Source of the DNA: Candidatus Flemingiibacterium sp.
GTDB taxonomy: Bacteria > Bacillota > Clostridia > Oscillospirales > CAG-272
Assembly: GCA_045534235.1 (NCBI GenBank)
Contig: JAZSJI010000085.1
Span: 1 to 47,336, forward strand
Reading direction: 5' to 3'
Length of the DNA stretch: 47,336 nucleotides
Part shown: positions 33,678 to 47,336 of the stretch, one piece after another
How the letters are laid out: every line of letters starts with the position of its first letter
Numbering within the stretch: position 1 is the first letter of the stretch
Program-made: the position numbers and the translations under genes
Notes under the pieces: model-generated
Seen by the model: the letters and a program-made list of their open reading frames with translations, nothing else
The model's database searches: none
Told to the model about the DNA's origin: nothing

Positions 33678-36600
33678 GTGTACGACTTGTCAGGTAGAAC
33701 GAATACTGCGAGGGCTTTTAGACTTGTTGTTGTGCTATTATCCGCTCTTTTGATAACTGCTGTTTGCGCCGTATCTCTTTCGGCTGATGAAATGCGTATA
33801 ATATCCGGCTTCTCGGGTGAGGATAAGGTCTCGTGGATGCCGGGCGATAACGTCGCATCTGTGGGGCTTTCGGATTTTTCATGGGAGCAGGACGGTCACG
33901 CGTATAAGCGCTCATGTCTTGAGGTTGTCGGCAGGTACGCCCCGCGCGATGCTTTGCGTGCAACCGTAGCAAGCTTTGCCGAGCCGCTTGATCTTACCGA
34001 ATACCATACAATGTCATTCGACATTTACGTGCCCCTGCTCGCAAACGATAGCGACGCCGTATTCCTCGCACGTCTGACACTTGTTTCGACGAGTGGTGAG
34101 AGCACGGAGCATCTTCAGATAATCGAGGGCGGCAAGTGGACTAACATTGAGGCGTACATCGGCTCGTGGGACGCAAGACGCGACATCGCCAAGGCAGAGA
34201 TCGCACTTGCAATAGATACATCGCTTGGGGGCAGCTCGGTTGATCGCTTCTACGTGGACGATGTTTGCGTGTCCGATCCCGTAGACCGCGACATGACTGA
34301 GAGGTATCTGTTCGATGCATACAAGATTGATGGTGGCTCTGCGACAGTTGCAGAGGATAAATCCAAAATATCGATAGTATCCGACACCGAGGGGATGCTT
34401 TCGCTTGAGGCAACGGTGTTCACACCTGAGCTTGATTATTCGCTTAATTGCCTGCGTATCCGCCTCGCAAATTATACTGAAAGCGATACGCTTACGCTTC
34501 ACTATTCCACGTCCGACTCACAGGCAACCACCGAGGACAAGATCGTAACCGTACCGATCGAACCCAACTCGGACGTTCGTGACTATTTGGTATTTGTCGG
34601 TGACGCCGCACAGTTGCGAAGTATAAAGCTGATATTGAACTCGGCTGTGGGACATGTTGAGATAATTTCAATAAATGCGATAAGTGCATATGAGCCAAGT
34701 GAATATATCACCTGCGGGGAGCTTACGTCTTGCACCGTAAGCGACGATCTTGCTACGGTTAAATTTTCCGGCGTGGTTGACCGCGAAACAGCTATAAATA
34801 ACAGGGACGGATATATTGCGATATTCCCTCACGAATCGGAAACGCTTCCGAGCGCAGAGGATCTTTTGAAGCTTTCGCCTCTCGTGAAAACCCAGATGAC
34901 CACTCGCTTTGAACTTTTATGGAAGCTACCGAAGGACGGTACTTACGACATTACCACGCGTTTTCTTGCGGTATCGGTAGGAGAGAGTGGAGAGTATAGT
35001 CTTATATGTCCGCCGTTTTACATACAGAATGCGGACAAGATAGGCGATAAGTCAACTGCACTTGCTCCGGACGCAAAGGGCTTTGCATCCAATGATATTT
35101 CTATTGTTGGAAACGTTGGTGCAACGCTGACCTTGCTTGAGCTTGATGCGCAAAGACTTTTCGTGCAAAAAAGCGATGCGGAGCCGTACGTATACCGCGG
35201 TGAGGCATATTATTTCGACGGTGCGTATCTTGATGCGATTAATTCGAAGATGGACGTTCTGGCTGCTGACGGGGTGCAGGTGCTTCTGCGGCTTTACGGT
35301 TGGAGGCTTACTGATAGCGCGCGGCTTGATGCGTTTTATGCCGAGGACAGCTACGTTGACTACTCCAAGGTAAACCGCTACAATGACGGAGGCGATTATA
35401 TCGCCGCTATAGGCGCATATATAGCCGAAAACTGGGTGGCTGACGGCAAAATTGTGGGTGTTGTATTCGGTGAGGGCGAAAATATCGTCGTGGGACAGAG
35501 CTCACTTTCGGATATGGTGGAAAACACTGCAGACTGTCTGCGTACTCTCTATTTTGCCCTTGTACAGGCTAATCCCGAAATCAAGCTTTACGTTTCGCTG
35601 TCAGACCTTTATACATCTGACGTGCACATAAGTGACGGTGAAATAGGGCTTGATGTTTATCTGCCGGCGCTTACTTTGCAGACGGCACAGTACGGGCAGT
35701 TCCCGTGGGAAATAGCTATTGAAAAGGTATATCGCGTCGGAAGTCATTCGCGTGAGTACATAAGTGTGGATAACTCTGCTGCGGTCCGTGACGTTCTCAC
35801 GAACAACGGTGCCTCGGATAAGCATATGATATTCATCGACCATACGTATTTTGCTTTCGCAAGCCGTAAGGTCGACAATGTAACGAACTACGTTCTTGGA
35901 ACGTACGGTGCGTTGTTCTGCGATTACATCGACGCGTATATCGCCGCTACCGGCTCGCGAGCAGATGAGATAGTTGACAGCGTGCGGTACATATATACGG
36001 CCGAGGCGTATGCTGTTGAGAACGTAGTCAAGGCTGCACTTGAAATAGACGATTTTTCCGATGTTATACCGGGCTTTGACGGGGGCAAGATACCGAAAAA
36101 GCGTGTTGTGTTCAATACGGCAAATAATACTGCGCCTACCGGTACGCTTGGATCGTTTGGCTACTATCGCTTTGACGGCGTTTCCAGCATTGGCGGCCTT
36201 TCGCCGAGCTATTACAGCCGTGAGCTTCGCGTGGCAAACGATGGCGGAAACGTACTGAACGTAGTTCTTGACGCTTCACTCTGGGGCGACGTTTCGAGTG
36301 CATCTTGGCTTGGTATAGGGCACAACTTCGATATTACTGAGGATCTGACGCTTACACCGGTTCTTGCGATCACTCTTAAGGTGGAGGACATTTTACCGCA
36401 ATCCCTTTCAAGTGTTACGGTAAATGTGGTTTTGAAGGGCGAGAATGAGCGTTTTGTATCGAGTGCCGCCGTTGCAGTCGGCGAGTGGACTACGGTATAC
36501 GTTGACACGCACGGCTTCAAGTCGGCGAAGGATACCGAGAGTTTGCAAATATTTGTCGGCGGCACAAGCGTTTCAAGTGCGATACTCAAGATAAAAAGTA

Positions 36601-36797
36601 TAGACGGCTTGTCAAGCGAGTACAACGATGAATCTCTTGCCAAGGTCATAGCGAAAGCGCGCGAAAAAAAGGCTGATCCCGATGCGGGAATAGACTATGG
36701 CGCATATCTCCCCATAGCACTCGGAGTGCTTGTGATTGCTGCAACGGTTATCGTCGTAGTGATGCTTACAAAGAAAAGATATAAGGAAAACGAATAA
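33678..36797 (+). CDS. very large secreted, C-terminally membrane-anchored protein; distant paralog of 25417-27852 with extra N-terminal beta-sandwich modules
   Basis: GTG at 33678 (or in-frame TTG at 33687) after aagggcgg. Signal peptide RLVVVLLSALLITAVCAVSLSA. It shares these blocks with the 811-aa protein: IFPHES, YVYRGEAYYFDG, FPWEIAIE. It ends in a TM helix (LPIALGVLVIAATVIVVVML) followed by TKKRYKENE. Confidence 0.8.
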   Translation: MYDLSGRTNTARAFRLVVVLLSALLITAVCAVSLSADEMRIISGFSGEDKVSWMPGDNVASVGLSDFSWEQDGHAYKRSCLEVVGRYAPRDALRATVASFAEPLDLTEYHTMSFDIYVPLLANDSDAVFLARLTLVSTSGESTEHLQIIEGGKWTNIEAYIGSWDARRDIAKAEIALAIDTSLGGSSVDRFYVDDVCVSDPVDRDMTERYLFDAYKIDGGSATVAEDKSKISIVSDTEGMLSLEATVFTPELDYSLNCLRIRLANYTESDTLTLHYSTSDSQATTEDKIVTVPIEPNSDVRDYLVFVGDAAQLRSIKLILNSAVGHVEIISINAISAYEPSEYITCGELTSCTVSDDLATVKFSGVVDRETAINNRDGYIAIFPHESETLPSAEDLLKLSPLVKTQMTTRFELLWKLPKDGTYDITTRFLAVSVGESGEYSLICPPFYIQNADKIGDKSTALAPDAKGFASNDISIVGNVGATLTLLELDAQRLFVQKSDAEPYVYRGEAYYFDGAYLDAINSKMDVLAADGVQVLLRLYGWRLTDSARLDAFYAEDSYVDYSKVNRYNDGGDYIAAIGAYIAENWVADGKIVGVVFGEGENIVVGQSSLSDMVENTADCLRTLYFALVQANPEIKLYVSLSDLYTSDVHISDGEIGLDVYLPALTLQTAQYGQFPWEIAIEKVYRVGSHSREYISVDNSAAVRDVLTNNGASDKHMIFIDHTYFAFASRKVDNVTNYVLGTYGALFCDYIDAYIAATGSRADEIVDSVRYIYTAEAYAVENVVKAALEIDDFSDVIPGFDGGKIPKKRVVFNTANNTAPTGTLGSFGYYRFDGVSSIGGLSPSYYSRELRVANDGGNVLNVVLDASLWGDVSSASWLGIGHNFDITEDLTLTPVLAITLKVEDILPQSLSSVTVNVVLKGENERFVSSAAVAVGEWTTVYVDTHGFKSAKDTESLQIFVGGTSVSSAILKIKSIDGLSSEYNDESLAKVIAKAREKKADPDAGIDYGAYLPIALGVLVIAATVIVVVMLTKKRYKENE

Positions 36798-39974: not shown

Positions 39975-40925
39975 TTATTGTTCGGTATCCTCACTCGGGC
40001 GCGTATCGCTGTAAGCGTAGAGATCGACTGTGTGTGTACGGTAATATTCCGCAAGCACAGCGCAGGAATCTCTGTTTAAGTGTATGCCGTCCTCAATCGT
40101 ATTTTCACTTGCCATTGTTCCGTCGTCAAGCGAGAACAGAGAAAGCGGATCAAGCAAAAACAGCCTGTTTTTTGCGACGTATTTTCTGATGAGCGCGTTG
40201 AATGCGACACACTTTTCATTCGTGATTCCAAAGAGTGTCGTTCTTGAAGCACGGTCGGTAACCGGAAGAACCAGCTGAACGTATATTGGCACGTCGGTTA
40301 CACTTCGGATATTCTTTATTAAGGTATCAAATGCAGCTATATATCCCTCCGGACTCCAACCAAGCTCGTTGAGCCCTGTTGAAATGTATATCGAGTGGTA
40401 GTTTCCACTTTCGAGCTCGAGTGCTTCAAGCACGGTATATTCGCGAAGGGCATTTGCTTCTTCGTCCTTCATTCGGATGTACGTCTTCGTATTTATAGAC
40501 GCGATATTTAGACCGGATGCCGAAAAATCGTAGCTCGGCTTTATGTTGGACAGCAGGATCAAGCCCTTAGTTCGCGAGTCACCGATGAATACGGTATCAT
40601 TAAAATAACTGAAGCTTACCGGTGCGCTTTCGGGTACCGGCTGCGTGAAATCGTACGGGGTGAGCGGCGGAGGAGGAATGTCGTCTTCGGTAAGATGTCC
40701 CTCGAGCACCGCATATTCAGCGGTAAGCGCCGGCTCTGGTGTCGGTGACGCTGCGTATTCGAAATTGTAATCGACGAACAGGAAAGAAGTAAACACCGCG
40801 GCCAAAATCAGCGCACCTATAGACACGAGAAGCTTTAGCAAAAGCGACACGATGCTTGCCTCGGGCTTTCCGCTTGACGGCTGTGAGCCTTGCGGATATA
40901 TATTCATTTGTGTGTGGCTTTTCAA
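39975..40925 (-). CDS. membrane-anchored SGNH/GDSL-family hydrolase
   Basis: TM helix IVSLLLKLLVSIGALILAAVFTSFLF. Motifs VFIGDSRT (block I), STGLNELG (block III) and EDGIHLN (block V). The start is TTG at 40925 (6 nt after aaagggggga) or ATG at 40907. The ORF-track start at 41000 lies upstream of the predicted transcription start. Confidence 0.75.
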   Translation of the reverse strand: MKSHTQMNIYPQGSQPSSGKPEASIVSLLLKLLVSIGALILAAVFTSFLFVDYNFEYAASPTPEPALTAEYAVLEGHLTEDDIPPPPLTPYDFTQPVPESAPVSFSYFNDTVFIGDSRTKGLILLSNIKPSYDFSASGLNIASINTKTYIRMKDEEANALREYTVLEALELESGNYHSIYISTGLNELGWSPEGYIAAFDTLIKNIRSVTDVPIYVQLVLPVTDRASRTTLFGITNEKCVAFNALIRKYVAKNRLFLLDPLSLFSLDDGTMASENTIEDGIHLNRDSCAVLAEYYRTHTVDLYAYSDTRPSEDTEQ

Positions 40926-40968
40926 GCGGATCCCCCCTTTCGTATGGCGTAATATTTTCCTAAAATCA

Positions 40969-40997
40969 ATTATAGCACAAATAAATACAACTTTCAA
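40969..40997 (-). promoter_or_regulatory. sigma-A promoter of the SGNH hydrolase gene
   Basis: Minus strand reads TTGAAA-17 nt-TATAAT with TGc. Confidence 0.55.
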
Positions 40998-41013
40998 CAA
41001 GAAATACGGAAAA

Positions 41014-44461: not shown

Positions 44462-44506
44462 GCCTGCAAGCGCTTTTATATCGCGCTTGCAGGCGTATTG
44501 TTTTTT
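44462..44506. terminator. terminator between the herA-like and lipoprotein genes
   Basis: gcctgcaagcgc / gcgcttgcaggc, a 12-bp stem, followed by gtattgtttttt. Confidence 0.7.
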
Positions 44507-44511
44507 GCGGC

Positions 44512-46629
44512 TTAATTAAATCCCGTTATCTCGAAGCGTATCAGCTTTCCTTCACCGGCGAGCTGAACGAAGCTTACTCCCGTCAGGTCTATGTTTGAAC
44601 CGGAGTCAATACGCATAAGGTTGCCGTTTGAATCAAACAGCTTGACCTTGACGCCGTCGTTCACGAGAAGGGACAGCTTATCATAGGTTTTGCCCTTGTA
44701 TTCGGTAAGATACTTGTTGCCCGCATCAAGACCTATGTAAAGGTCACGGTACAAAATTCCGTTTTCGGAGAAGAAGTGGAGTACGGTTGGCTTATAGTGG
44801 ATTCCCAAAGCGTCAAACTTGGGATAGAGGTTAAATTTTTCAGCGCCGCGCAGATCTACCGTGTAATGTTCGTTGTTAAGCATTTCTTCGTTTGGCTTAA
44901 GCCACTCGTAGAAACCGTCGAATACACTCTCGCCGTATGCCAGATAGAAGGCTTCAAGGATCTTTTCATTTGGCAGTCGGTCGCTGCCCTTACTGTTTTT
45001 GTAGAAGGGGTAGCTTTCCTCAAGCTTGTATATCCAATCCGTGTAGTTGCCGAAGGTTTCGTCAAGATACCACATCAGACGGAAGCCTATAACGTAGTTT
45101 GCGTTGGAGGAGTATTCAAACGTATTGTCTATCCAATACTCCATCGGATGCTCGTAGAGCTTGCTGTAGTCGTGAACGTACATATCTCCGACTGATTGAA
45201 CTGTGAGATCTACGCTCTCTGCCAGGTCGGGGTAGTTTTGAGCGATATATTTTTGCGTTTTGTAGGTAGTATAGGTGGATATTCCCTCCATCGCCCATTG
45301 GCAGTAGAACCAATTGGATTGGCGAAGCTGAAGGACGTGAGAGCATTCGTGAATGAGGGTGTCGAGCTTTATGATGTCGCCGGAGGAAATTACCGCGCCG
45401 CTCGCACCTGCATATGCTTCGTGGAATTCACTCTCAATAGCTGCGTTCTTCTTAACCTCGACGAGTGTGAGCGCTTCCGTGCCCCTCGGATTCCAAAAGC
45501 TGAACTTTTTATTATATTCCGGATTGCCCTCAAACTTCATTCCGGAAACGGTTTCCATAACGCTTGTGACAATGTTAAGAGTTTCCCTAAGATCGTCCGG
45601 TACGTAAACTCCCGCGTCGATCTTAAGCTCAAGGTGGTCTGTTATCAGTACCGTTGGTTCTTTGGTTATAGTTCCCGAAGGGAAGCTTACGCTTGTCTTT
45701 TCAAGCTTCGGTATAACCTCCTGCGGGACTAAAATTTTCCCGCATCTCGTACAGTGCTTGCCCTCTGTAAGACCGGGGGTGCTGTAGGTTGCCGCTATCT
45801 CTCTGTCAATGACCTCGATGTGACCAAGTGCGGGTATAACTGATCTTTCTGTGAAGAAAGTGCCGCATATGTCGCAGTAGCTACTCTCTGTATAGCCGTC
45901 CGCTTCGCACGTGGGCTCGGCTGCATCTTCGGTTACAATGACGTGCTCTGATTTGGCAATAGGTTCCTGCTCGACTAGTATTTCATTACATACAGAGCAG
46001 TGTTTGCCCTCGGTAAGGCCTTCTGTTAAGCAGGTAGGCTCAACGGCTTCAGTGATCACCTCAACGTGAGCGCTTTTGGCAACAGGCTCCTGTACTACGA
46101 TAACTTCACCGCATACAGAGCAGCTCTGGCCTCTTGTAAGACCCTCTGAGGTGCAGGTAGGAGCGACTGCCGTTAGTGTAACGGGAATGTGCTCAAGCTT
46201 TGCGATGGTTTCTCTGCCGGAGAAGATTTCACCGCATACGGTGCATTCTTTACCGGCTGTGCGGCCTTCGGTGGAGCAGGTCGGAGCGGTTTCGTCAAGC
46301 GCGAGGATGTTGTGCCCTGTTTTTGAGATAGTCACCTGTGCAACCAAGATCTCGCCGCATACAGAGCAATGCGAGCCCTCGGTGAGTCCCTCTGACAAAC
46401 AGGTGGGGTTAACAGGCTCATCAATGACGACCGTGTGCCCCTTCTTTTGAATAAGCTCTTGAGCGAATATAATCTCGTTGCATCCGGAGCAGTGCGCACC
46501 CTCGGTTAATCCATTTTCCGTACACGTTGCAGGTACTGCGTGGTCTACGACGGGAGTGTGCTTATGAGAGCAACCTGCGAGCACGAGCAGGATTGCGGAA
46601 AATATCAATAACGCGAATATTTTTTTCAT
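44512..46629 (-). CDS. lipoprotein with seven His/Cys3 repeats and a C-terminal HExxH domain, function unknown
   Basis: The ATG at 46629 follows agagagga. Lipobox LLVLAGC. Seven 41-aa repeats are followed by a domain carrying HECSH. The ORF-track start at 46683 adds 18 aa with no SD and lies partly upstream of the predicted transcription start. Confidence 0.8.
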   Translation of the reverse strand: MKKIFALLIFSAILLVLAGCSHKHTPVVDHAVPATCTENGLTEGAHCSGCNEIIFAQELIQKKGHTVVIDEPVNPTCLSEGLTEGSHCSVCGEILVAQVTISKTGHNILALDETAPTCSTEGRTAGKECTVCGEIFSGRETIAKLEHIPVTLTAVAPTCTSEGLTRGQSCSVCGEVIVVQEPVAKSAHVEVITEAVEPTCLTEGLTEGKHCSVCNEILVEQEPIAKSEHVIVTEDAAEPTCEADGYTESSYCDICGTFFTERSVIPALGHIEVIDREIAATYSTPGLTEGKHCTRCGKILVPQEVIPKLEKTSVSFPSGTITKEPTVLITDHLELKIDAGVYVPDDLRETLNIVTSVMETVSGMKFEGNPEYNKKFSFWNPRGTEALTLVEVKKNAAIESEFHEAYAGASGAVISSGDIIKLDTLIHECSHVLQLRQSNWFYCQWAMEGISTYTTYKTQKYIAQNYPDLAESVDLTVQSVGDMYVHDYSKLYEHPMEYWIDNTFEYSSNANYVIGFRLMWYLDETFGNYTDWIYKLEESYPFYKNSKGSDRLPNEKILEAFYLAYGESVFDGFYEWLKPNEEMLNNEHYTVDLRGAEKFNLYPKFDALGIHYKPTVLHFFSENGILYRDLYIGLDAGNKYLTEYKGKTYDKLSLLVNDGVKVKLFDSNGNLMRIDSGSNIDLTGVSFVQLAGEGKLIRFEITGFN
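45700..46560 (-). repeat. 7 x 123-bp in-frame tandem coding repeat (41-aa units)
   Basis: Each unit begins with His: HTPVVDH.., HTVVIDE.., HNILALD.., HIPVTLT.., HVEVITE.., HVIVTED.., HIEVIDR... Each contains (P/A)TC-x3-G-x-T-x-G-x2-C-x2-C. Confidence 0.85.
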
Positions 46630-46697
46630 ATATATCCTCTCTTTAACAAAGATTGGTAAACAGTATGAAAACCTCTGTTTCAAAACAATACCTTTAA

Positions 46698-46726
46698 ATT
46701 ATATCACGAATTTTACTGATTTGCAA
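46698..46726 (-). promoter_or_regulatory. consensus sigma-A promoter of the lipoprotein gene
   Basis: Minus strand reads TTGCAA-17 nt-TATAAT, about 60 nt upstream of the ATG. Confidence 0.6.
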
Positions 46727-46739
46727 TATCTTTTTACAC

Positions 46740-46761
46740 AAAAAAGGTGCTCAAAAGCACC
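46740..46761 (-). terminator. short minus-strand terminator upstream of the lipoprotein promoter
   Basis: Minus-strand RNA reads ggugcu-uuug-agcacc followed by uuuuuu. Confidence 0.45.
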
Positions 46762-46875
46762 CTATAAATCTATTATATCATATAACTCATATATTTGTAA
46801 ACTCCTTTTTGGTCAAAAATATTACTTTCTGCCTTTTGCATAAAAATTTGTTGTGTAGTTTTTACAATTTGCCAA

Positions 46876-46904
46876 TTGAAAAACGGGAAAATATATGCTA
46901 TACT
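46876..46904 (+). promoter_or_regulatory. sigma-A promoter of an ORF-less transcription unit
   Basis: TTGAAA-17 nt-TATACT with TGc (extended -10). Confidence 0.55.
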
Positions 46905-46910
46905 ATAGAC

Positions 46911-47306
46911 ACAGAGAAGGAGGACAGTCCAATGGGCTAGATAAAAACAAAAATCCCGGCAAGGTGTTCAGATCACAGGTCGAGTTCAGGTTAAACAAAA
47001 AACACGGCGGTGTTACGCTTAACATAGATTTGTGAGATCTCTTTAATCAAATTGTGGTAGAAAAGGTAAGAATAGTGATCTGAAGGCGGACTTGCCAATC
47101 ACCCGACGCAGCTTAAGTAAAAGCATAACAAACGGTATTCTCGTTAGAGAAAGAATAAGATGAAAAGAAAGTGTTTTAGCAGCAGATGTGAGCGGCGGAA
47201 GGGTAGAAAAACGAAAGTGAGGATAACAAAAGATGTTAGATATCAAGAGTGAACAGAAATAACCCTTGATTGTAGATGTGAAACTGCAATCAGGGGTTAT
47301 TTTTTT
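46911..47306 (+). ncRNA. candidate ~400-nt non-coding RNA or long regulatory leader (unclassified)
   Basis: It is bounded by the promoter at 46876-46904 and a strong terminator at 47259-47306. There is no plus-strand ORF of 60 aa or more, and the longest hand-found ORF is 30 aa with no SD. The plus strand is purine-rich with local hairpins. Confidence 0.35.
47259..47306 (+). terminator. strong intrinsic terminator
   Basis: ataacccttgattg / caatcaggggttat, a 14-bp stem with one G-U pair and a 14-nt loop, followed by ttttttt. Confidence 0.75.
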
Positions 47307-47336
47307 ATGCTTTTTAAAAAGGTACACTAAATAAAT

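Follow-up and report, generated by a model that had tools for sequence, protein, structure and literature searches.

The aminopeptidases of family M1 have two domains, I and IV, by which the active site is closed onto the N-termini of peptides, and the LTA4H-type enzymes of this family are bifunctional. In the BSP family (PF04450), with PRp27 as an example, a metal is bound through the HExxH motif, proteolysis has not been demonstrated, and the family is not in MEROPS (PMC9322406). Here we analyze a stretch of DNA of 47,336 nt (contig JAZSJI010000085.1 of assembly GCA_045534235.1, referred to as the window) from a gut bacterium of the Clostridia that has not been cultured and is close to Candidatus Flemingiibacterium, and in particular one of its genes (44512..46629 on the minus strand, stop codon included). 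The translated open reading frame (ORF) of this gene is a lipoprotein precursor of 705 aa with an HExxH motif. We consider it probable, although well short of certain, that the product is a surface lipoprotein in which a zinc peptidase distantly related to M1 is mounted on a stalk of seven His/Cys modules. The parts are of known kinds, namely a lipoprotein, a gluzincin, a Cys/His mini-domain and a surface-protein stalk; what is new is that no library searched has a name for either the peptidase family or the repeat. A preliminary description of the gene, made from the sequence alone, had given positions for the ORF, start codon, lipobox, repeats and HExxH motif, and all of them were located where it had placed them. 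Unless otherwise noted, coordinates are those of the window, features lie on the minus strand (-) and residue numbers are those of the full-length protein.

Lipoprotein signal and repeat array

Residues 1-19 form a lipoprotein signal peptide that is followed by the lipobox residue Cys20 (LLVLAG and then Cys20; 46570..46629). The N-terminus, MKKIFALLIFSAILLVLAG followed by C20, matches a lipobox. It is laid out as an MKK n-region, an h-region IFALLIFSAILLVLA and LAG directly before C20, and the lipoprotein pattern [LVI][ASTVI][GAS]C is found within the first ~35 aa. Lipobox-type N-termini are kept in nearly all full-length close homologues, in agreement with the preliminary assignment as a lipoprotein. 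Judging from the lipobox, Cys20 would be lipidated and would anchor the protein.

The signal peptide is followed by an array of seven units, each exactly 41 aa long (aa 24-310). The mean pairwise identity between units is 44%, compared to 7.3 +/- 0.9% in 2,000 shuffles. At the DNA level the units are only 42-64% identical and Tandem Repeats Finder detected nothing in the repeat DNA, the units being too diverged. The array is therefore old and maintained and not the product of a recent amplification. The first six units (aa 24-269; 45823..46560) each have the full pattern H-x11-C-x10-C-x2-C and are putative all-beta stalk modules with a Zn(His,Cys3) site. The seventh, or cap, unit (aa 270-310; 45700..45822) abuts the catalytic domain and has H270, Y282 in place of Cys1, C293 and C296. 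Six of the seven units thus have all four ligands and unit 7 has three. The seven 41-aa units of the preliminary description stand, while its His and Cys triad in each of them holds for units 1-6 and not for unit 7. A Cys1-less cap unit also adjoins the catalytic domain in most repeat-bearing close homologues, and such units close arrays in unrelated proteins as well. In the AlphaFold2 (AF2) model of the array, with a predicted template modelling score (pTM) of 0.46, the units are all-beta beads, and most of them have a predicted local distance difference test (pLDDT) value of at least 90. The first hairpin lies between His1 and Cys13, and a later hairpin has the CxxC at its turn. Foldseek comparison of the whole array against PDB returned beta-propeller noise only (template modelling (TM) score ~0.07) and no fold relative.

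The repeat occurs in at least 4,610 surface proteins (protein clusters) of Clostridia, where its partners include LRR_5, SLH, cohesin, dockerin, Big_2, fn3, InlB B-repeat, VanY and choline-binding modules. This bears out the mention, in the preliminary description, of similar units in large surface proteins of gut Clostridia. Its statement that the repeat is not a named domain is likewise upheld, as no named family above cut-off was found in Pfam (2025 copy) or NCBIfam (2026) and no relative among the sequences of PDB. The only Pfam echoes are partial matches to CxxC zinc knuckles and zinc ribbons, and the Pfam labels on repeat proteins turn out to be sums of partial CxxC-knuckle matches in which no single stretch passes. 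Other candidates were rejected. Matches to designed WD40 sequences in PDB are an artefact, in which one weak match of 32-38 aa (per-repeat E ~5-200) is summed over 7-13 identical blades. The Kazal-type inhibitors match only at E=0.23-0.31; the unit has three Cys and not six, and there is no helix in the AF2 model.

We then considered which His belongs to which Cys triad. The consensus of 621 units, chosen by the H-x11-C-x10-C-x2-C pattern, is HTEViDxAVAPTCTetGLTEGKHCSVCneVLVaQexipAlG, and the His of the next unit follows in 556 of the 621. When units were anchored on the CxxC alone, Cys1 was present in 752/858, and 701 of those 752 had their own His. Co-loss counts first suggested a trailing-His model, in which each triad would be completed by the His of the following unit. 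However, these counts were then found to be confounded: a cap unit without Cys1 is by its nature the last in its array, and the trailing His in most cases belongs to the start of a further short module (H-x5-9-CxxC). At true array starts the leading His is present in 10/10 cases, from at least 4 lineages, and at true array ends none of the 4 full terminal triads, all four from one lineage, is followed by a trailing His. The array-end counts therefore assign the site to His1, Cys13, Cys24 and Cys27 of one unit, the phase in which the preliminary description had read it, and the secondary structure of the AF2 model is in line with this.

In homologues of the peptidase, the slot between lipobox and catalytic domain is occupied by 0-5 full units, by Pro/Thr-rich linkers or by a different Cys-rich repeat. 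Full units are found in only 46/191 family members, and six or more of them in only 5. The replacement of the array by Pro/Thr linkers or other repeats is the main evidence that it acts as a spacer or stalk. Alternatively, the repeats may themselves bind or adhere to a ligand from the host, the diet or bacteria, with the peptidase as their accessory. The company of LRR_5/BspA, InlB B-repeat, cohesin and dockerin would suit such a role, and units that are as old and diverged as these (42-64% DNA identity) may each be under selection of their own. We nevertheless regard adhesion as an improbable main function, because the repeats are swapped for Pro/Thr linkers or dropped in homologues in which the catalytic domain stays, their copy number ranges from 0 to 7, and the conservation within a unit falls on a framework of His, Cys, Gly and Thr and not on a surface patch.

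Further variants of these modules were seen among the proteins collected. In the N-terminal 85-150 aa of the family members P0041, P0044 and P0048, a denser Cys-rich repeat with 16-29 Cys replaces the His-Cys3 unit as the stalk (an example of its pattern is C-E-N-V-C-x2-C-G-x-C...C...K-C-x-G-H-H). In other surface proteins (P0076, P0081, P0123, P0133 and many more), the 41-aa units alternate with, or precede, shorter related modules such as H-x5-9-C-x2-C-G and HTYDDKYDESCNVCGFIRDAECAH. These sequence patterns point to a wider superfamily of extracellular His/Cys mini-modules.

Binding of zinc by the His+Cys3 units is suggested by the odd number of Cys together with the conserved His, by the knuckle-like matches and by the anaerobic hosts. 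The Cys could instead form disulfides or be free thiols, and the repeat would then hold no metal. Disulfides are common in many organisms in extracytoplasmic proteins, of which this is one, and the spacing has a weak Kazal-like match (E=0.23). To this we give little credence, since each unit has three Cys and a co-conserved His, the CxxC recurrently gives partial zinc-knuckle and zinc-ribbon matches, and the hosts are, from their taxonomy, presumably strict gut anaerobes. Moreover, the AF2 model has one hairpin between His1 and Cys13 and the CxxC at the turn of another, an arrangement like that of zinc ribbons.

Catalytic domain and its remote homology to M1

The preliminary description treated the C-terminal ~395 aa as one domain. 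AF2 and Foldseek divide this region into two, namely a catalytic domain (aa 311 to ~586; 44872..45699), in which an N-terminal alpha/beta subdomain is followed by a helical one, and a beta-sandwich (aa ~587-705; 44515..44871) at the position of M1 domain III. The AF2 model of the C-terminal region, calculated with the family alignment, has pLDDT 93.5 and pTM 0.93. In the numbering of this model, to which 310 is added for full-length positions, the HExxH lies on helix 113-127 and E138 on helix 134-155. As modelled, the catalytic domain is a gluzincin of the clan MA(E) fold, with the HExxH helix and a Glu on the next helix. The HExxH domain seen earlier in the sequence thus has a gluzincin fold with conserved ligands. 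Foldseek against PDB returned M1 enzymes first (IRAP, E=6.8e-5, prob 0.99; ERAP1) and then thermolysin-like M4 enzymes (aureolysin and thermolysin; E=5e-4 to 2e-2), and the top match in BFVD, a viral library, was an M61 catalytic domain. The M1 alignments span 416-425 columns, which is the whole query, compared to 230-340 columns for M4. From this, the terminal sandwich seems to be the counterpart of M1 domain III. The sandwich alone has weak Foldseek matches to F-type fucose lectins and to the collagen-binding domain of ColH, and it is possibly a substrate-binding module.

From the conservation among homologues, H427 and H431 of HECSH (aa 427-431; 45337..45351) are predicted to be zinc ligands and E428 the general base. 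The predicted third zinc ligand is E448 (45286..45288), which lies in EGISTY and aligns to the Glu of the NEG motif of LTA4H. The motif QWAMEGISTY, which the preliminary description had put 14 residues after HECSH, is present but starts 12 residues after it; the relevant Glu is E448, hence the motif is HExxH-x16-E. Y512 (45094..45096) is invariant and aligns to Tyr383 in the PYEKGF of LTA4H, the catalytic Tyr of that enzyme, and it is the predicted catalytic Tyr and stabiliser of the transition state.

A word-indexed homology search found 49 relatives, all unnamed, and an exhaustive profile search found 341 representative clusters, of which 128 have E<=1e-30. Wherever an origin is given for a family member, it is a metagenome-assembled genome (MAG) of gut Clostridia. 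When the conservation of HECSH was checked, as the preliminary description had proposed, the H-E-H-E set was found intact in 41/42 close homologues and kept in 150/168 family members, and all 42 close sequences had the general base E428. In a set of 31 diverse active-type members, invariance is confined to H427, E428, H431, E448, Y512 and F573. The position of Y512 holds Tyr in 143/144 members with intact ligands, compared to 3/18 members without them. In the ligand-less members the ligands are lost together, and the adjacent structural GF survives in both groups. Such a pattern of joint retention and joint loss of ligands and Tyr is the signature of a working catalytic set, and the HECSH residues thus withstand the refuting condition that the preliminary description had set for them.

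In one subclade (P0247, P0250, P0251, P0254-P0256, P0258, P0262 and P0264; profile E ~1e-40 to 1e-61), both His, both Glu and the catalytic Tyr are lost and the fold motifs are kept, and these proteins are apparent pseudo-peptidases. P0170 is a single chain of 1,172 aa with two complete stalk-plus-peptidase modules, and tandem paralogues are found in two MAG loci, L013 (4018-5187 and 5935-7167) and L015 (6001-7155 and 7270-8145). The family duplicates locally.

The relationship to M1 was seen with a profile (A5) of the catalytic domain only, in which distant members are included. Against PDB, this profile matches LTA4H-type enzymes at E=2.2e-6 to 5.5e-6 and the cold-active aminopeptidase ColAP at 4.9e-6, with weaker matches to ERAP2, PSA, APN and IRAP. 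All of the M1 matches run through a single stretch of ~145 residues. The alignment of A5 to LTA4H superposes the HExxH, the Glu of the EG motif, and the 'nY.iGF' of the family on the 'PYEKGF' of LTA4H. The catalytic domain is remotely homologous to that of M1.

Nevertheless, the protein falls outside M1, and likewise outside M4, BSP and M60, when membership is tested. The GxMEN motif of M1 (searched as G.MEN) is found in 0/191 family members, and the family consensus upstream of HExxH is ExGxAYAxxxGxxISSGD. Domains I and IV of M1 are not in the AF2 model, which has the catalytic domain and the C-terminal sandwich only, the repeats lying N-terminal to them. PF01433 (Peptidase_M1) has no match in the window protein or in 14 close homologues, and its best score in the family is 17.4 bits, in the distant member P0290, compared to a gathering cut-off of 27.7. 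A Pfam scan of the same 14 homologues gave no model above cut-off. There is also no Pfam match to Peptidase_M4 or M4_C in the window protein or these homologues, and instead of the His231 arrangement of thermolysin the family has the M1-type Tyr.

The C-terminal domain could also be a metalloprotein that does not cleave proteins, a binding module, or an enzyme other than a peptidase (cf. the epoxide hydrolase activity of LTA4H). There is a precedent in BSP/PRp27, which binds metal through HExxH and for which cleavage was not found (PMC9322406). The nearest solved sequence relatives are the bifunctional LTA4H-type enzymes, and the family has a dead subclade of its own. A mere scaffold would, however, hardly explain why H, E, H, E and Tyr are jointly selected (150/168 and 143/144) or why E428 is invariant in all 42 close sequences, and we therefore hold a non-proteolytic role to be unlikely.

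It is considerably less likely that the protein is a mucinase-type (M60-like) glycoprotein peptidase with a lectin-like sandwich. The gut habitat would be suitable, two distant members have weak Peptidase_M60 matches (E=0.0065), and F-type fucose-binding modules are weak matches of the sandwich (prob 0.8-0.89, E ~0.03-0.05). However, the M60 matches are below cut-off with no single stretch that passes, the lectin matches have a TM-score of only ~0.27-0.29 over 80 columns, no Pfam model of a carbohydrate-binding module (CBM) or lectin matches the window protein or the 14 close homologues, and the sandwich is at the position of M1 domain III.

The preliminary description had compared the domain to BSP (PF04450). 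This did not hold, as PF04450 has no match at E<=10 in the window protein or in the 14 close homologues, and the HExxH...EGxxxY layout that had been read as a sign of BSP is common across clan MA(E) and not specific to BSP. PF04450 matches 1/36 distant members, P0285, at 20.8 bits (E=3.6e-4; cut-off 23.8) over 109 profile positions (29-137), and the echoes of Peptidase_MA_2, M60 and M90 in distant members are weaker still; we read all of these sequence signals as echoes at the level of the clan. Although P0285 and the common HExxH...EG layout speak for it, membership in BSP is the least probable of the alternatives, with M1 backed by structure and by a stronger profile match and with a domain of ~275 + 120 aa compared to ~200 aa in BSP.

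Expression signals and genomic context

The gene starts with the ATG at 46629, and the sequence AGAGAGG (46636..46642), read directly 6 nt 5' of the ATG, is its putative ribosome-binding site. At NCBI there are both the exact sequence and an allele, P0171, that is 99.1% identical and has the same 705-aa frame; both are unnamed. A sigma-70-type promoter-like site, TTGCAA-17-TATAAT with a TG extension (46698..46726), lies ~69 nt upstream of the ATG and was identified by consensus match only, its hexamers matching at 10/12 positions. Downstream, a hairpin with a 12-bp stem (about 44462..44494; -25.9 kcal/mol, z=-5.48) occupies the 58-nt convergent gap with the gene of a HerA-like ATPase. It has U-rich flanks on both strands and can terminate transcription in both directions. 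Upstream of the promoter, the hairpin scan found a second terminator-like hairpin (46744..46763). In the sister contig L017 the genes upstream of the target are all on the opposite strand, so this hairpin has no obvious same-strand gene to terminate. Of the consensus promoter and the terminators on both sides in the preliminary description, the promoter and the downstream hairpin were thus found, and the upstream hairpin lacks an evident gene on its strand. Rfam matched no family over the window or over the upstream leader.

The neighbours in the window are unrelated housekeeping genes (HerA_C, YgjV, YgjP-like, QueH, GDSL lipase and PfkB). One locus, L001, from a congeneric MAG of Candidatus Flemingiibacterium, is syntenic with the window, with neighbours 59-98% identical (HerA 85%, PfkB 88%) and an ortholog of the target that is 61% identical. 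The latter value, next to those of the neighbours, would fit a diverging surface protein. We looked for a conserved operon partner in L001-L016 and four further contigs, and found none beyond the synteny of L001; in the fifteen other loci and the four further contigs the neighbours are shared neither with the window nor among themselves. The target gene is a stand-alone unit, as first described, with no conserved neighbour in five other genomic settings and with its own promoter and terminator.

Some side observations were made in the window. The neighbouring gene of the GDSL-like lipase (39975-41000) has 59% identity to its L001 counterpart and has diverged like the target (61%), and the cytoplasmic neighbours are 71-98% identical between the window and L001. 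From these identities, the lipase and the target may both be fast-evolving exported proteins. On the plus strand (+), there is a promoter-like site TTGAAA-17-TATACT (46876-46904), then a leader of ~400 nt and, at the contig end, a very strong terminator hairpin of 20 bp (47256-47303). In L017 this leader region continues into a gene for a xanthine/uracil permease and a UPRTase gene. The region 46876-47336 has no family in Rfam, even at E<=1, and from its layout it looks like the attenuator of a pyrimidine-salvage operon. Also on the plus strand, an ORF of 1,039 aa (33678-36797) is mostly unannotated, and its sole Pfam match is a partial one to DUF5722 (aa 467-681).

Proposed mechanism and comparison with known systems

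We propose the following mechanism for the lipoprotein. After export, Cys20 would be lipidated and the signal peptide removed, which would leave the protein tethered to the outside of the cytoplasmic membrane. Each of six all-beta modules would hold one Zn2+ on His1, Cys13, Cys24 and Cys27 of its own unit, with three of the four ligands in the cap module. The stalk would be a beads-on-a-string spacer, possibly made rigid by its metal, that carries the enzyme from the membrane into or through the cell wall. In the enzyme, H427, H431 and E448 would hold the catalytic zinc, E428 would activate the water and Y512 would stabilise the transition state, while the C-terminal beta-sandwich at the position of M1 domain III probably helps to hold the substrate. 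The substrates may be extracellular proteins or peptides. Because the sequence has no GxMEN and the model no M1 domain I or IV, an open-cleft endopeptidase is likelier than a classical aminopeptidase.

Several points weigh against a zinc peptidase on a metal-binding stalk. No Pfam or NCBIfam model is above cut-off in the window protein. The close-family profile (A2) found nothing in PDB, and the link to M1 appears only with the broader profile. Comparison by hhalign to an approximate thermolysin sequence aligned the HExxH helix only (14 columns, probability 0.6%). The wider family has a catalytically dead subclade, which indicates that the fold can also have roles other than catalysis, and the case of BSP/PRp27 means that an intact HExxH is no proof of a protease (PMC9322406). 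For the repeats, the numbers behind the ligand-phase test are small, and unit 3 is modelled poorly by AF2 (pLDDT ~50).

A more far-reaching reading is that two undescribed families meet in this protein, one a minimal two-domain offshoot of M1 that has retained the zinc ligands and the catalytic Tyr, has lost GxMEN and domains I and IV, and has thereby turned into an open-cleft surface endopeptidase of gut Clostridia, and the other an extracellular 41-aa His-Cys3 zinc module that serves thousands of Clostridia surface proteins, in tandem arrays closed by a dedicated cap unit with three ligands, as a metal-dependent rigid stalk across the wall. We put this forward tentatively, as somewhat short of an even chance. 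In the open-access literature we found no description of the repeat, the peptidase family or the genus, which is not proof of absence. We see here an annotation gap that is solid and testable, and not an overturning of current understanding. Naming the repeat, which is found in at least 4,610 protein clusters, would allow a large share of the surface proteins of uncultured gut Clostridia to be annotated better, and the repeat would put to the test whether zinc-stapled mini-domains can be wall-spanning extracellular stalks. The peptidase family, with its 341 representative clusters, shows an M1 catalytic core without the domains that make M1 enzymes exopeptidases, and would add a candidate class of surface proteases for gut anaerobes of livestock and wild herbivores. 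The proposed mechanism predicts that a molecule contains ~7 Zn and that the mutants E428Q and Y512F lose activity.

Compared to the known peptidases, the family is nearest to M1 (LTA4H, ColAP, ERAP1/2, IRAP and APN), with which it has in common the gluzincin fold, the HExxH on one helix and the EG Glu on the next, and the invariant Tyr aligned to Tyr383 of LTA4H. As inferred from Foldseek, the beta-sandwich directly after the catalytic domain would correspond to domain III of the four-domain M1 enzymes. Unlike these, the family lacks GxMEN as well as the beta domain I at the N-terminus and the helical domain IV at the C-terminus, its Glu is 16 residues after the HExxH (HExxH-x18-E in M1), and it would be lipid-anchored through a repeat stalk. 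The M4 enzymes (aureolysin, thermolysin, LasB and vibriolysin), which are secreted bacterial endopeptidases, resemble the target in their two-lobed gluzincin fold and open cleft. In contrast to them, the target has no sequence relation beyond the HExxH helix, no M4 Pfam match and no propeptide. The BSP or PR-17 proteins (PF04450, e.g. PRp27) are also secreted members of clan MA with an HExxH and then an EG-type Glu, but they have a single domain of ~200 aa compared to ~275 + 120 aa here, and every member tested is below the PF04450 cut-off.

For the repeat, the closest known systems are of two kinds. The zinc ribbons and knuckles are likewise all-beta, of ~40 aa, with a CxxC knuckle at a hairpin turn and two further ligands; the repeat differs from zinc ribbons in its H-x11-C-x10-C-x2-C pattern with a single CxxC, in its long extracellular tandem arrays and in having no named family above cut-off. 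As a spacer, the array resembles the G5-E repeats of SasG/Aap, Big_2, fn3 and Pro/Thr spacers, all of which, like the array, stand between an anchor and a functional head in variable copy number. The array and Pro/Thr linkers are interchangeable in homologues, and SasG and Aap appear as faint echoes in the Foldseek comparison. Unlike the SasG/Aap-type spacers, to which it has no detectable homology (prob <=0.2), the array is built from a much smaller module that is based on Cys and His.

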